64,000 nucleotides of DNA from an uncultured Chloroflexia bacterium (GCA_963746855.1 CAVVDC010000012.1:100230-164229); one strand, 5' to 3'. Positions 27,363 to 32,894 are shown, counted from the first letter of the stretch. Notes: generated by a model from the sequence alone, not told the origin. Made by a program: numbers and translations.

Positions 27363-29063
27363 TCATGTGGGCATCGTCCGCAGTCGTTCGATGAGCCAGT
27401 CGGCGCCCTTGACGAGGTTCGGCAGGTCGATCGACTCGGTCGACGGGCGATCCGTCGGGCGGCCGAGCAGGTACCCCTGGCCGGCCCCGATGCCGAGCGA
27501 TCGGACGACCTCGAGTTGGGCTGGTGTCTCGATCCCCTCCGCGACGACGAGGGCGCCCCAACGGTCGGCCAGGTCGCGCAGGGTCTTGACGATCTCGAGT
27601 GACGTCTCGCGGACCGCGCCGCCCTGGACGAGCGACAGGTCGATCTTGACGATGTCGAAGCGCAGCTGGCTCAGGAGCCGCAGCCCGGCATTACCGGCTC
27701 CGACGTCGTCCGCGGCGAGCCGGATGCCGGCGACCCGGCAGGCCTCGCATGCCCGGCGCAGCCGGTCGACGTCCTCGACGGCCTCGCGCTCGGTCAGCTC
27801 CAGGACGATCAGCCGCGGATCCAGGCCGTGTCGGACGATCATGCGCAGCAACGCGTGGACGCTGAAGTCGTCGCTCTCGAGCGTGCGCGGCGACAGGTTG
27901 ACCGTCAGCGACCCGGGCAGGCGCAGGCGGGCCGCCGTCTCCATGACGGTGTTGAGGCAGGCGATGTCGAGCTCGCTCGTCCGCCCTGTCGCCTCGGCGG
28001 CCTCGAACAGCGATCCGGGGTCGTTGAACCCGCTGTCGGGCAACGGCCGCACGAGGCCCTCGTAGCCGCGCGGCGCGCCGGTCGACAGGTCGAAGATCGG
28101 CTGGAAGACCGCCCGGATGGCGCCGGTCGCGGCGACCTGCGCGACGGCCGCCGAGAGCTCGGCCTGCGGACGCTCGGTGACGTGGTTGTCGTGGCGCGCG
28201 GCGTCGTAGATGGTCACGCACGTGCGGCCGTGGCGCTTGCTCCAGAAGAGCGCGCTGTCGGCCTGCCGGTAGAGGGCCTCGCGGTCCTTCGCGGGGGTGG
28301 GCCCGGCACCGATGCCCGCCGAGAACGAGACCGTGTGCGCGGCGCCACGACCGGTCTCGCCGTCGAGACATGCGGCGAGCAGCCGGCGGACCATGACCTG
28401 GGCGCCCTCGGTGTCGGTGTCCGCGAGGATCAACGCGAACTCATCGCCGCCGATCCGGAACGCCCGATCGGAGCGGCGCATGTAGGCCGCCATCGTGGTG
28501 GCGGCCTGGCGCAGGACCTGGTCCCCGGCGGCGTGGCCGCTGGAGTCGTTGATACGCTTGAAGTCGTCGAGGTCGAGCAGGGCCAGGGCCATCGAACGAC
28601 CTGTCCGGACGGCGAGCGCCCACTGGCGCTCCATCTCCTCCTGGAACGCCCGGTGGTTGCCGAGGCCGGTGAGCGTGTCCCGGAGCGCCTCGGCTCGGGC
28701 GCGGTCGTAGGCGTCCTCGAGGATGCGACGGCCCTCCTCCAGTCGTTCGGCCGGTTCGAGGACGCGGCGGGCGAGCCAGACGGTGAGGGCGCCGAGGAGC
28801 AGCGCCATCGAGATGAGGGCGACGGTCGGCACGATGAGGGAGGTGCCCGATCGTGCGGTCAGGCCGTAGATGAACGGCGCCGCGATGAGGATCGGGATCG
28901 CGAACATGATGATGAGCGCGAGGAACAGGCGAAGACGGACCAGTCGCAGGTTCGTCGACTCGCCTAGGAGCACTTCCGGAGCCGATGGATCGTCGCGGAT
29001 GGTCCTCTCCCAACGTTGAGTGAGGTCTGTTATAGCCGGGATGGGTTGCCGTCGGACGAACAC
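27363..29063 (-). CDS. membrane-anchored GGDEF-EAL protein (diguanylate cyclase/phosphodiesterase)
   Basis: N-terminal TM helices. RRSD-x5-GGDEF (I-site plus active-site motif), an EAL domain with the variant YEGLVRP, DDVGAG, EGIETPAQL, QGYLLGRP. Confidence 0.9.
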   Translation of the reverse strand: MFVRRQPIPAITDLTQRWERTIRDDPSAPEVLLGESTNLRLVRLRLFLALIIMFAIPILIAAPFIYGLTARSGTSLIVPTVALISMALLLGALTVWLARRVLEPAERLEEGRRILEDAYDRARAEALRDTLTGLGNHRAFQEEMERQWALAVRTGRSMALALLDLDDFKRINDSSGHAAGDQVLRQAATTMAAYMRRSDRAFRIGGDEFALILADTDTEGAQVMVRRLLAACLDGETGRGAAHTVSFSAGIGAGPTPAKDREALYRQADSALFWSKRHGRTCVTIYDAARHDNHVTERPQAELSAAVAQVAATGAIRAVFQPIFDLSTGAPRGYEGLVRPLPDSGFNDPGSLFEAAEATGRTSELDIACLNTVMETAARLRLPGSLTVNLSPRTLESDDFSVHALLRMIVRHGLDPRLIVLELTEREAVEDVDRLRRACEACRVAGIRLAADDVGAGNAGLRLLSQLRFDIVKIDLSLVQGGAVRETSLEIVKTLRDLADRWGALVVAEGIETPAQLEVVRSLGIGAGQGYLLGRPTDRPSTESIDLPNLVKGADWLIERLRTMPT

Positions 29064-29116: not shown

Positions 29117-29716
29117 GTGCACGCTGCGTCGATGTTCATCCTGTACGGGGTCCTGGTCGGGCTCCTGATCGGCGTCGTGACCGGCGGTTCCGCGGCGTTG
29201 CTGGGCCGGCTCCGCTTCCGCTGGGGCGCCGTCGTCATGCTCGGCATGGCCGCCCAGCTGCTCCTGTTCTCGTCGCCCATCGGTGACGCGCTCGGGCCGG
29301 CGGCGCCAGCGGTGTACATGGCGACCAACGGCGTGGTGCTCGCTGCGGTCGCCCGGAACCTGGCGATCCCCGGGCTGCCGCTGGTCCTGCTGGGGGGCTT
29401 GGCCAACCTGCTCGCGATGGTCGTCAATGGCGGCTACATGCCGGTCAGCCGCGCCGCGCTCGAGGCGATGAACCGGGCGCCGGGCGATGGTGGCTACTCG
29501 AACAGCGCCCTGCTCGACCACGTCCAGCTGGCGCCCCTGACCGATATCTTCGCGATGCCCACCTGGCTGCCGGTCGCCAATGTCTTCAGTGCGGGTGACG
29601 TGCTCATCGGCGCCGGCGTCGCGATCGCGATCGTCGCCGGGATGCACGGCCGCGGGCCACGACTGGACGCGGCCCCGACCGCTCCGGCCGACCCCATTGG
29701 TGCGCCCGGACACTGA
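29117..29716 (+). CDS. DUF5317-like polytopic membrane protein
   Basis: 199 aa with 5-6 hydrophobic helices. NGGYMPVS and FSAGDVLIGAG motifs as I recall them for DUF5317. Confidence 0.65.
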   Translation: MHAASMFILYGVLVGLLIGVVTGGSAALLGRLRFRWGAVVMLGMAAQLLLFSSPIGDALGPAAPAVYMATNGVVLAAVARNLAIPGLPLVLLGGLANLLAMVVNGGYMPVSRAALEAMNRAPGDGGYSNSALLDHVQLAPLTDIFAMPTWLPVANVFSAGDVLIGAGVAIAIVAGMHGRGPRLDAAPTAPADPIGAPGH

Positions 29717-29815
29717 CCCGCACGGGCACGGTGAGTAGGACCATCGCGTCATGGTGACGGGACCATGGTCCGCCCACATTTCGAGGAGGGAACGAAGGCC
29801 GTTTCCGCGATCGCC

Positions 29816-29898
29816 ATCGTCCAGGGCAAACCCGTCGCGAGGCGGGGACGCAAAGCCAGGGATCTCCTTCGGGAGACCGCCCAGCCGCCGTTGACGGT
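29816..29898 (+). promoter_or_regulatory. c-di-GMP-I (GEMM-I) riboswitch aptamer
   Basis: AUCGUC-CAGGGCAAACC-CGUC-GCGA-GGCGGGGACGCAAAGCC-AGGGAUCUCC-UUCG-GGAGACCGCCC-AGCCGCCGUU-GACGGU. The CAGGGCAAACC...GGGACGCAAAGCC core matches the Vc2 riboswitch as I remember it. The P2 helix is capped by a GNRA loop (GCGA), there is a second hairpin, and a closing helix AUCGUC/GACGGU. Confidence 0.7.
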
Positions 29899-29928
29899 CG
29901 TCAGGTGCACAGCCACAAGGTAGGTGCC

Positions 29929-30018
29929 GTGAAGGCGAACCTGGCGCGCTTCACCATGGCCGTGTCGCTTCTGGCGACGATGGCCCTGTCCCTCGGCGCG
30001 GGCATCAAGTGGTATTGA
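29929..30018 (+). CDS. 29-aa hydrophobic micropeptide immediately downstream of the riboswitch
   Basis: GTG 29929 follows AAGGTAGG. The peptide is MKANLARFTMAVSLLATMALSLGAGIKWY (one TM helix after K/R residues). 27 of 29 third positions are G/C, like bona fide genes here. It is below the ORF-track size cutoff. Confidence 0.4.
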   Translation: MKANLARFTMAVSLLATMALSLGAGIKWY

Positions 30019-30146
30019 CCATGAACGTCATGTTCGTGGTCTCTGCCCATGTGCTGTCCGACAGCGGTCGACCCGGACCCGAATCCGGTCATCGCTGGCG
30101 CTGAACTGATGGCGGCCGAGCGACCTCCGGGTCGGTCGGTCCCGCG

Positions 30147-30174
30147 GAGAGCGGCCCCGCCCGGGGCCGCTCTC
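30147..30174 (+). terminator. perfect 12-bp hairpin between the riboswitch-sORF unit and the GGDEF-EAL gene
   Basis: GAGAGCGGCCCC-gccc-GGGGCCGCTCTC followed by TCGATTCC. Confidence 0.5.
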
Positions 30175-30215
30175 TCGATTCCGGGCATAGGACTTTCGGG
30201 TGGGCGTCGAGGAGG

Positions 30216-32894
30216 ATGGTCGGGGCGACACTGACCGCCACGGGACGCCCCAGTCGACGAGCTTGCATGCCCCAACCCTCCGGATCGCCGACATCGACAC
30301 GTTCAGCCGAGCAGACTGACGGACCTCCGCCGCTGACCGCGGCCATGGAACGGCCGCCTTGGCTGGATGCCGCCGTTCGCGTTCGGCTGTTCATCGTCAG
30401 CCTGGTGATCGTCGGGATCTTCGGCTACCTCGCGTTCGTGCGCGACATGGCCCCCGTGCCCGGGGGCATCATGCTGTTCTGGCCCCTGGCGGCCCTGGGC
30501 TTCTACCTGGGCGAGACGAACGTCGTCGTGGTCCATTTCCTGCGCGAGCGTCACTCGTTCTCGCTGAGCGAGCTGCCGGGCGTGATGGGCCTGTTCCTGC
30601 TGACCCCTCCCGACTACGTGCTGGCCTACGTCGTCGGCGCCGGTGCGGCGCTGCTGCTCGATCGCAACCAGTCCGGCGTCAAGCGCGCCTACAACATCGC
30701 CCAGGTCTGGATCTGCGCGATCGTCGGGCTCGTGGTCTTCCATGCGATCGCCGAACCGAGCGGGCAGCTCGTGCCCCGGGACTGGATCGCGGCGTTCGCG
30801 TCAACCGGCGCCACGGCGACCCTCGGTGCGGTCCTGGTCGCCACCGTCATCTCGCTCTCGGGCGGGGCCCCCCAGTTCACCAAGCTGCCCGAGATGATGC
30901 GGTTCAGCACGATGGTCGCGATGGCCAATACAAGCCTGGCGCTGCTGGCGGTCATGGTCATCAAGGAGGACGCGCGATCGGTCCTGCTGCTCGCGGTGCC
31001 GACGGCCATCGTGTTCCTGGCCTATCGCGCCTACATCGGCGAACGGGAGAAGCACGAACGCCTCGAATTGCTGTACGAGTCGAGCCGACTGCTGCACTAC
31101 GCGCCCGAGCTCGACTCGGCCATCGCGGCGCTGCTGGACCACGCTCGCAAGATGTTCCGGGCCGAGCGCGCCGAGCTCCTCCTGTTCCCCGATCCGAACG
31201 GCGAAGGCGCCCTCCGGTCGAGCGCCGGCGGCGCGGCCGGACCCGAGACCATGACGCCCCAGAAGGTGCCGCTCGCCGACTCGCTCCGGGCCCGCGTCCA
31301 GCGCGAGCGCGGGGCGTTCCACGCGACCGTGACCTCGGCGTGGACGCTGCAACCGGAACAGGTCGAAGAGGCGATGGTCGGTCCGCTCGTCGGCGAGCGC
31401 GGCGTCTTCGGCGCGGTGACCATCATCAACCGGCTCGGCGAGGGCAGTCGCTTCGAGGCGGATGACCTGCGCCTCCTGGAGACCGTCGCCAACCAGGCCG
31501 CGGTGGCGCTGGAGAACGGCCAGCTGGAGCAGTCCCTGCACGAGCTGTCCCGGCTCAAGGAGCAGCTCCGCCACCAGGCCTATCACGACTCGCTGACCGG
31601 TCTCGGCAACCGGGCCCTCTTCGTCGAGGAGGTCGAGCGCCGGCTCGCCGGGCCGCGCGACCCGGCGGCGCCGCCGTGCATCGTCTTCCTCGACCTCGAC
31701 GACTTCAAGGTCGTCAACGACACGTTCGGACACCCCTCGGGCGATGAGCTGCTGGTCGATGTCGCCGAGCGCATCGGGGCGGAGCTGCGCGACGGCGACC
31801 TGCTGGCGCGATTCGGCGGCGACGAGTTCGCCGTTCTGCCCGGCGAGGGCGCGAGCGTCGAGGACGCCATGGCGCTGACCCAGCGCATCATCGTCGCCCT
31901 CGAACTGCCATTCCCGGTCGCGGGGACGGACGTCATCGTCGGCTGCAGCGTCGGGATCAGCGTCGCCCGCGGTGGCGAGCTCGTCGACGAGCTCCTCCGC
32001 GACGCCGACGTCGCGATGTACCGGGCCAAGGCGGACGGCAAGCGTCGGGCCGAGGTGTTCGACCCGAAGATGCATCGCTCCATCGTCGAGCGCCACGAGC
32101 TGAACACGGACCTCGGCCGGAGCATCAGCCGCGGCGACCTCGCCGTGCACTACCAGCCGATCGTCGAGCTGACGACCGGCCGGATCGTCGGCGTCGAGGC
32201 GCTGGTCCGCTGGCGTCACCCGACCCGCGGCATCGTGGACCCGGCCGACTTCATCCGGCTCGCCGAGGAAAGCGGCAAGATCGTCGCACTGGGCCGCACG
32301 GTCCTGCAGGCCGCCGCACAGCAGGTCGTGGCCTGGCATCGCCTCCCGGGCCTCGAGACCCTGGCGCTCAGCGTCAACCTGTCGCCGCTCCAGCTCCAGC
32401 ACAAGGGCTTCATCGACGAGGTCGTGGCGGACCTGCGCGAGTCAGGCATCGATCCGGGCGACCTGACCTTCGAGATGACCGAGACCGCGATGTTCCGGGA
32501 CACGCAGGCCACGATCGTCACCCTCGAGTTGCTGCGGGCCCTCGGCGTCCGGATCGCGATGGACGACTTCGGCACGGGCTACTCGTCGCTCGCGTACCTG
32601 CGCCGCTTCCCGGTCGACATCCTCAAGATCGCGCGCGAGCTCATCGGGGCGCCCGGAGAGGCCGAGCGCGAGGCCTGGGCGTTCGCGAAGGCCATCCTCG
32701 CGCTGGGCCGTTCACTCGGCCTGACCGTCGTCGCAGAAGGCATCGAGACCGACGAGCAGCTCCGGATGCTGCGTCGCCTCGGGTGCGAGCTGGGCCAGGG
32801 CTACCTGTTCGGCCGACCGGCCACGGCCAAGGAGATCGAGGCCCAGCTCATCGAAGGCGTGACCGGCCCCCTCGGCCAGCGGGTCACGGCCTGA
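30216..32894 (+). CDS. polytopic membrane GAF-GGDEF-EAL protein (diguanylate cyclase/phosphodiesterase)
   Basis: About 8 TM helices, a GAF-like segment (...[39 protein letters not shown]), RDGD-x5-[38 protein letters not shown]. The start is uncertain: ATG 30345 ([18 protein letters not shown]...) is a plausible alternative. Confidence 0.9.

Follow-up and report, generated by a model that had tools for sequence, protein, structure and literature searches.

A canonical c-di-GMP-I riboswitch as the probable leader of a two-micro-peptide unit in uncultured Chloroflexota

An aptamer among c-di-GMP turnover genes

The 64-kb stretch of DNA analysed here (the window) derives from an uncultured Chloroflexia bacterium and carries, on the plus strand at positions 29816-29893, a 78-base element that is, as judged by sequence comparison, an ordinary class-I aptamer for cyclic di-GMP (c-di-GMP). 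The element is followed by two short open reading frames (sORF1 and sORF2), each specifying a micro-peptide, and then by a terminator-like hairpin. We present evidence that the element is probably a canonical c-di-GMP riboswitch forming the 5' leader of this two-micro-peptide unit, which ends at the strong hairpin, with a proposed translational switch at the start of sORF1. The host group, Ca. Limnocylindria, is an abundant uncultured class of soil and freshwater bacteria, and the genes associated with riboswitches have been a classic route for assigning unknown genes to a regulon.

The unit is embedded among genes of c-di-GMP metabolism. Immediately 5' of it lies a DUF5317 membrane-protein gene (29117-29716, plus strand; Pfam PF17248, E = 4e-24), and divergent from this gene is a GGDEF-EAL gene on the minus strand (27363-29063; Pfam EAL 7e-47, GGDEF 3e-39). 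Downstream, a GAF-GGDEF-EAL membrane protein is encoded at approximately 30345-32894 on the plus strand (Pfam EAL 3e-73, GGDEF 4e-39, GAF 1e-12), with its GGDEF, RxxD and EAL motifs intact in the translation. The distance from the DUF5317 stop (29716) to the ATG of this enzyme (30345) is 628 nt, in agreement with a first-pass annotation of this DNA that had placed a GEMM-I aptamer in a gap of about 630 nt between c-di-GMP enzymes, and the bases it quoted are exactly those at 29816-29898. Its further statement that no protein reading frame explains the region holds for the aptamer itself and fails for the gap, which contains two conserved sORFs and the terminator-like hairpin. The DUF5317 protein had no record in exact look-ups; the same family is also found 5' of the aptamer in a distant locus (L036, 5605-6153).

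Orthologous loci were fetched with the N-terminal 420 residues of the downstream GAF-GGDEF-EAL enzyme as the query. This yielded 80 loci at 48-97% identity, 81 sources with the window, all 80 from uncultured Chloroflexota metagenome-assembled genomes annotated as Ca. Limnocylindria/Limnocylindrales or 'Chloroflexia'. Aptamer copies were located by pattern search, and for the count of covariation the canonical structure was imposed on an alignment of 75 sequences. Positions are numbered according to the Vibrio cholerae Vc2 aptamer by mapping the Rfam alignment onto the Vc2 sequence, a mapping that reproduces the residues given in PMC11705072 (A33 in the GAAA loop, G41/G42, C44-G83, G45, G94 and U96).

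Structure and predicted ligand of the aptamer

In a covariance-model scan of 4227 Rfam families, the sole match at gathering threshold in the window was 29816-29893 on the plus strand, to RF03167 (c-di-GMP-I-GGC), with 60.8 bits against a gathering threshold of 59 (a margin of 1.8 bits), E = 7.1e-12, over the full length of the model (1-80 of 80). A second model of the same clan (CL00126) also reaches its own gathering score in the window; in near-identical orthologues, differing by a few bases, RF01051 (c-di-GMP-I) takes this second place and scores 52.5-53.1 bits (threshold 35). A permissive Rfam scan of 29600-30400 gave only noise besides the aptamer match. The search for a c-di-GMP-I match above threshold that the first-pass annotation had called for thus finds one, at the level of the clan.

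The predicted fold is that of a three-way junction. The P1 core consists of two base pairs, C29818-G29890 and G29819-C29889 (29818-29819 with 29889-29890), and is conserved across relatives. P1a is formed by 29826-29827 with 29850-29851 and by 29831-29836 with 29841-29846 and is capped by GCGA, while P1b pairs 29854-29866 with 29873-29886 according to the Rfam structure line. Both hairpins recognized in the first-pass annotation fit this structure line: CCCGUC-GCGA-GGCGGG is P1a, and UCUCC-UUCG-GGAGA extended by GGG/CCC is P1b. The ligand in Vc2 is contacted by G20, A47 and C92 (PMC4744006, PMC5888326). The predicted counterparts in the window are G29825, A29852 and C29888, respectively, and the interhelical pair C44-G83 corresponds to C29849-G29879. 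With all of these residues present, the binding pocket is fully canonical, and their columns are invariant in 75 relatives. A de novo RNAalifold prediction for the whole leader paired GGC (29824-29826) with GCC (29886-29888) and gave no canonical junction; the Rfam/Vc2 structure was preferred and was then examined by counting pairs.

The aptamer is present in 72 of the 81 sources, in 78 copies, every one of which has A47; among the first 20 loci, 23 copies are confirmed by Rfam. All 75 sequences (100%) pair in the P1 core (CG in 65, UG in 7 and UA in 3). For P1a the paired fraction is 97%, four of the six pairs showing compensatory changes, and for P1b it is 87%, with three compensatory pairs. 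The covariation score was reached by none of 500 shuffles, and partners slid out of register were 36-46% paired, against the 69% observed. Compensatory changes among orthologous loci, which the first-pass annotation had named as a check on its helices, are thereby found in P1, P1a and P1b; together with the above-gathering covariance-model score, the three-helix architecture and the canonical G20, A47 and C92, they uphold its assignment of the element to GEMM-I.

The closing helix is a different matter. The first-pass annotation had closed the junction with AUCGUC/GACGGU, and this is not the conserved helix. What is conserved is the 2-bp P1 core together with an outer helix, P0, in which 29808-29815 pairs with 29893-29900 on the plus strand, enclosing the aptamer. 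Since the linkers align poorly, P0 was examined with an alignment-free comparison of own and cross duplexes, in which the own partner gave a mean of -9.4 kcal/mol, against -6.7 for partners taken from dissimilar relatives, and was the better one in 70 of 75 cases; pairing examples are CGAUCGCC/GACGGUCG, CGAUCACC/GAUGAUCG and CAUCG/CGAUG. Counted directly on a MAFFT alignment, in which the linkers are misaligned, P0 is only 45% paired. The 3' strand of P0 (GACGGUCG in the window) can alternatively pair with AUCGUC at 29816-29821, so that AUCGUC/GACGGU is a possible alternative pairing in the window; it uses the junction CGUC, whose invariance places it beyond a covariation test, and the pairing conserved for the GACG-type linker is that with the upstream flank. 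The 5' strand of the outer helix and P1 also coincides with one copy of a direct repeat, CGCGATCGC(C/G)ATCGTC, at 29806-29821 and 29620-29635 (94% identical), the other copy of which lies in the DUF5317 coding region; the repeat is probably due to chance in this G+C-rich DNA.

Two other ligands have to be considered. Taken at face value, the best Rfam score would assign the element to the orphan c-di-GMP-I-GGC variant class, with a ligand other than c-di-GMP: RF03167 is the best model for the window and for 18 of the 23 orthologous copies, the overall length (80 nt) and the high-G+C flavour of P1a and P1b are alike, and the window's P1b resembles that of true G47 sequences on the high-G+C metagenome contigs L081 and L083. 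We take 'GGC', from the family name and consensus, to denote the triplet G20-G47-C92. The G47 that defines the variant is absent, with A at position 47 both in the window and in every one of the 78 related copies, whereas the RF03167 consensus is GACGCGAA; the window reads GGGACGC-A-AAGCC against GGGACGC-G-AAgCc in the consensus, the mapped variable position being 47, and it also carries G19 instead of A. Moreover, the window only just passes the RF03167 threshold, most true G47 sequences have a higher score (59-76 bits), and the two models do not separate on base 47, some G47 sequences scoring best on RF01051. The gene context differs as well, in that G47 relatives have other genes downstream and not sORFs; a metagenome scan for such relatives gave 13 loci, none with sORFs, and several of them were chance matches. 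The good score of the window on RF03167 is explained by a high-G+C style of P1a and P1b that is common to variant members, as seen in L081 and L083. We therefore regard membership of the variant class as very improbable, and the element should not be filed under RF03167 despite its score. The alternative that the element senses 3'3'-cyclic GMP-AMP (cGAMP), as a GEMM-Ib-type variant, we consider scarcely credible. Riboswitches of that type share the same fold and are matched by models of the same Rfam clan; they are marked, however, by A20 (GEMM-Ib, c-AMP-GMP), and position 20 is G (G29825) in the window and in all relatives, in a column that is invariant among the 75 sequences and within an invariant CAGGGCAAA block. 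The GGDEF-EAL genes of the neighbourhood also argue against cGAMP sensing.

In the course of the metagenome scan, six aptamers of the true-G47 RF03167 type were observed within 6.5 kb, on both strands, of a single contig (Ga0209515_10000418; L085, 2523-9021).

The micro-peptide unit and the proposed switch

Each aptamer copy is followed, after 35-45 nt, by a Shine-Dalgarno (SD)-like site and a GTG or ATG that opens a frame of 28-32 codons. In the window this frame, sORF1 (29929-30018, plus strand, GTG start), specifies a predicted single-helix membrane micro-peptide of 29 residues, MKANLARFTMAVSLLATMALSLGAGIKWY. The consensus among relatives, MK-x-x-L-x-R-F-T-x-A-x-x-L-L-A-x-M-A-L-x-L-G-A-G-x-(R/K)-W, is basic at its N-terminus, has a single hydrophobic helix and closes with Arg/Lys-Trp. 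Codons 10-28 carry the signature of coding DNA, with an entropy of 1.14 bit at third positions as against 0.39 at second positions, and the codon of the invariant Ala24 has a third-base entropy of 1.76 bit. The peptide matches no Pfam or NCBIfam family. Its exact sequence is present, unnamed, in a public protein collection, where its relatives are labelled 'hypothetical protein' and it matches 58 representative clusters, many of which are over-long gene calls that run through the riboswitch.

Two nucleotides past the sORF1 stop begins sORF2 (30021-30104, plus strand, ATG start; 27 residues, MNVMFVVSAHVLSDSGRPGPESGHRWR), which nearly all loci possess and whose product invariably terminates in G-(H/Q)-R-W followed by zero to two residues. 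The Gly of this motif uses all four GGN codons (third-position entropy 1.9 bit), and its Arg is specified by CGC in each of the 33 distinct sequences. In distant loci sORF2 specifies a membrane peptide of 32-34 residues (M..KAQAFRVLLVLSALASSALVLEAGQRWK) that resembles sORF1, and elsewhere it is as short as nine residues (MAPLAGHRW). A C-terminal (A/S)-G-x-(R/K)-W motif is common to both frames, and these patterns of codon usage indicate that sORF1 and sORF2 are coding sequences.

The unit ends at a terminator-like hairpin (30147-30174, plus strand; inverted repeat I8) with a perfect G+C stem of 13 bp, 100% complementary, followed by UCUCGAUUCC. Nearly every locus has a very stable G+C hairpin, of differing sequence, at about 140 nt or less past the sORF1 stop, mostly with an energy of about -23 to -37 kcal/mol. 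In the window the sORF2 stop is followed first by a smaller hairpin, GGCCGAGCGACC-UCCG-GGUCGGUCGGUC (30111-30138), and then by the terminator-like one; relatives, too, have a small hairpin immediately ahead of the large one.

The conserved gene order points to the two reading frames as the target of the riboswitch. The unit stands some 450 nt 5' of the GAF-GGDEF-EAL gene in the window and in about 25 close orthologues. About 50 more distant orthologues are arranged as GGDEF-EAL, DUF5317, riboswitch, sORF1, sORF2 and hairpin, and in the one distant locus inspected further downstream (L036) a convergent gene follows the hairpin. Only the two sORFs are always found 3' of the aptamer, and DUF5317 is the sole constant 5' neighbour. 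Because the unit stands 3' of the enzyme gene in the distant orthologues, control of the enzyme cannot be its conserved function, and comparative gene order identifies sORF1 and sORF2, not the enzyme, as the conserved target. Tandem riboswitch-sORF units about 500-600 nt apart occur in L006 (1823, 2410), L013 (1935, 2438), L015 (1943, 2431), L069 and L077, and L014 has one unit on each side of the GGDEF-EAL gene (2371, 5612), which suggests a module that can be moved or duplicated. We considered, and rejected, the idea that the stretch from sORF2 to the enzyme gene is a decayed second copy of the leader, the local alignment score of 37 being not different from that of shuffled sequences (35.5 +/- 5.6).

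The candidate expression platform lies at the start of sORF1. The SD sequence AAGGUAGG (29917-29924) is held in a hairpin at 29907-29927 (plus strand) in minimum free energy (MFE) folds, and relatives have equivalent SD hairpins, for example GACUC-AAAG-GAGUC; the modelled unpaired probability of the SD is about 0.25. The start codon itself is part of a second hairpin, GUGAAGGCG-AACCUGG-CGC(G)CUUCAC (29929-29954, plus strand), in which 94% of alignment cells are paired, with three compensatory pairs such as GUG..CAC to AUG..CAU. Third positions of sORF1 codons 1-9 have an entropy of only 0.37 bit, more nucleotide conservation than coding requires, and the first 27 nt of the frame are, on this comparative evidence, constrained at the RNA level. 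Within this region CCUGGC (29940-29945) is perfectly complementary to the invariant GCCAGG of the aptamer (29855-29860) and mimics the 3' strand of P1b; 97% of alignment cells are complementary for this alternative helix. The MFE structure of the window computed with RNAfold uses the long-range alternative helix instead of the aptamer, as do 24 of the 75 MFE structures. When the two states are enforced on the 75 leaders, they are isoenergetic (-75.7 kcal/mol with the aptamer and -75.8 with the alternative helix, a difference of 0.1 +/- 4.6), as expected of a switch tipped by ligand binding. A scan for T-run terminators found no intrinsic terminator between aptamer and sORF1, and translational control is therefore the natural reading.

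These observations suggest the following mechanism. The aptamer would bind c-di-GMP in the manner of Vc2, with G20 contacting one guanine through its Hoogsteen edge, C92 pairing with the other in Watson-Crick fashion and A47 placed between the two, while GNRA-capped P1a would dock on P1b and the C44-G83 pair would join the helices. The start of sORF1 would serve as the expression platform, its first 27 nt forming either the start-codon hairpin or a duplex with the 5' strand of P1b that destroys the aptamer. By locking P1b, P1 and the outer helix, the ligand would decide the structure of the initiation region, and this structure would set the translation of sORF1 and, by coupling, that of sORF2. 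We infer from the sequence four parts of this scheme, namely c-di-GMP as ligand, the alternative helix as the switch, translational and not transcriptional control, and the promoter. As to the sign of regulation, we lean weakly towards ON with c-di-GMP.

Further conserved elements lie upstream of the aptamer on the plus strand. Just 5' of it, a hairpin, GGGAACG-AAGGC-CGUUUCC (29788-29806), shows two-sided changes at six of seven pairs and has 73% of its cells paired despite imperfect alignment, with forms in relatives that include GGAACG/CGUUCC, GGAGCG/CGCUCC and GAGGACG/CGUCCUC. A candidate -10 element, CACATT (29775-29780; xAnnnT), has its A and T more than 90% conserved (A13 and T17 in the 75-sequence alignment A1), and it is placed as a -10 element might be for a transcript starting at the 5' hairpin. 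The other candidate, for a promoter or an operator, is a conserved 10-mer, [GA]CA[CA]TGACC (GACACTGACC in the window; 29710-29719), which stands 114-118 nt 5' of every aptamer in close orthologues (L001-L019, L026, L053), second tandem copies included. A further copy in the window is at 30228-30237 (repeat D2), and in both the window and L001 this recurrence precedes the GGDEF-EAL start codon by about 117-123 nt. Taken together with a TAGGAC/TAGTAC element located 17 nt further 3', the 10-mer could be a shared promoter or operator. Distant orthologues (L020-L080) have a different conserved motif, GGTGC-N5-GGAACCTCCCCC(G)GAA, between DUF5317 and the riboswitch, about 125 nt 5' of the aptamer (e.g. 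L036, 6222-6260), and the GGAAC within it resembles the -35 element of extracytoplasmic function (ECF) sigma factors.

Several observations weigh against a leader that controls sORF1 translation in this way. The promoter and the transcription start are placed by conservation alone, and two candidate promoters compete. The hairpin at 30147-30174 lacks a clear U-tract and was not scored by the simple T-run terminator scan. Both sides of the alternative helix are invariant, which puts it beyond a covariation test, and the helix is lost in five relatives that keep the aptamer (L020, L021, L022, L076 and L080). The SD site is in a local hairpin in both modelled states, and opening the initiation region costs about 14 kcal/mol in either. 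Finally, the models give no consistent ON or OFF signal: initiation is easier in the holo state by 1.0 +/- 2.6 kcal/mol (51 of 75 leaders) and harder in the window sequence.

Two other modes of action share some of this evidence. In the window's lineage, transcripts could read through the hairpin, which has no clear U-tract, into the GGDEF-EAL gene. The riboswitch might then mainly control the GAF-GGDEF-EAL gene, giving feedback of c-di-GMP on its own turnover enzyme, and the sORFs would be passengers or leader peptides. In the window and its close orthologues, riboswitch and enzyme gene share a strand, with the riboswitch some 450 nt to the 5' side, the hairpin between them has no strong U-tract, and c-di-GMP riboswitches are often found 5' of GGDEF or EAL genes (PMC7266159). 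We nevertheless think this unlikely: in the distant orthologues the enzyme gene precedes the riboswitch-sORF unit, in every close locus the sORFs and the enzyme gene have a very stable hairpin between them, and the recurrence of the unit's 10-mer just 5' of the enzyme gene hints at a separate promoter. It is also rather improbable, in our estimate, that the element acts on RNA stability or processing, such that a closed, ligand-bound 5' structure protects the short mRNA from 5'-end-dependent decay. The conserved 5' hairpin and the long closing helix that open the unit would fit such a role; occlusion by itself does not explain switching when both states are predicted to have a closed initiation region, and one preprint reports that Vc2 controls the stability of adjacent RNA (bioRxiv 10.1101/617340). 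Codons 1-9 of sORF1, conserved as RNA and complementary to P1b, point instead to the initiation region as the platform, and a translational switch at the sORF1 start remains the reading that we favor.

Comparison with known riboswitches and implications

In its core the element closely resembles Vc2 (RF01051). The blocks CAGGGCAAACC and GGGACGCAAAGCC are identical, G20, A47, C92 and the C44-G83 pair are shared, and in both RNAs P1b and a GNRA-capped P1a meet at a three-way junction. A P1 of adequate length is important for ligand binding by Vc2 (PMC11705072), and the conserved outer helix, which extends P1 here, fits this reported need. Unlike Vc2, the element has a short P1b with a UUCG or variable loop and no tetraloop receptor of the 11-nt type; the GYGA loop probably docks on a conserved CU:AG step of P1b. 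The host is also different (Chloroflexota, Ca. Limnocylindria), as is the downstream gene, two micro-ORFs here and tfoY in the case of Vc2. With the translational Vc1 (gbpA) and with Bc1/Bc2 of the Bacillus cereus group, the element shares the character of a cis-acting 5' leader predicted to exert ligand-dependent control over the next gene, and PMC4744006, PMC11218506 and PMC4933901 describe either sign of regulation within the c-di-GMP-I class. It differs from them in having no intrinsic terminator between aptamer and gene, a competing strand within the first six codons of sORF1 and a bicistronic micro-peptide target.

The riboswitch itself is ordinary and can be detected by any Rfam scan. 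Its annotation, however, holds a trap: the variant model RF03167 outscores its parent on canonical pockets, so that automatic annotation of Chloroflexota genomes can be expected to mislabel such elements as a variant with unknown ligand. RF03167 thus mislabels canonical aptamers in this phylum, an observation that is new. Literature searches returned nothing on DUF5317, nor on c-di-GMP in Limnocylindria, and c-di-GMP riboswitch signalling is now placed in this class. Also new is the target, a two-peptide unit with a shared G-x-(R/K)-W C-terminus and a constant link to DUF5317 and c-di-GMP turnover genes.

The association ties an unannotated pair of micro-peptides and DUF5317 to the c-di-GMP network and makes them testable candidates for new effectors. 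As a speculative working guess, the peptides may be small membrane partners for the DUF5317 or GGDEF-EAL proteins encoded beside them. In the broader form of this idea, which is likewise doubtful, Chloroflexota micro-peptides of 9-40 residues, made or shut off by c-di-GMP, would bind DUF5317 or GGDEF-EAL proteins or, by way of their Arg-Trp pair, c-di-GMP itself. If the peptides do bind the neighbouring proteins, the unit would form a closed feedback loop on c-di-GMP turnover and would represent a new kind of c-di-GMP output.

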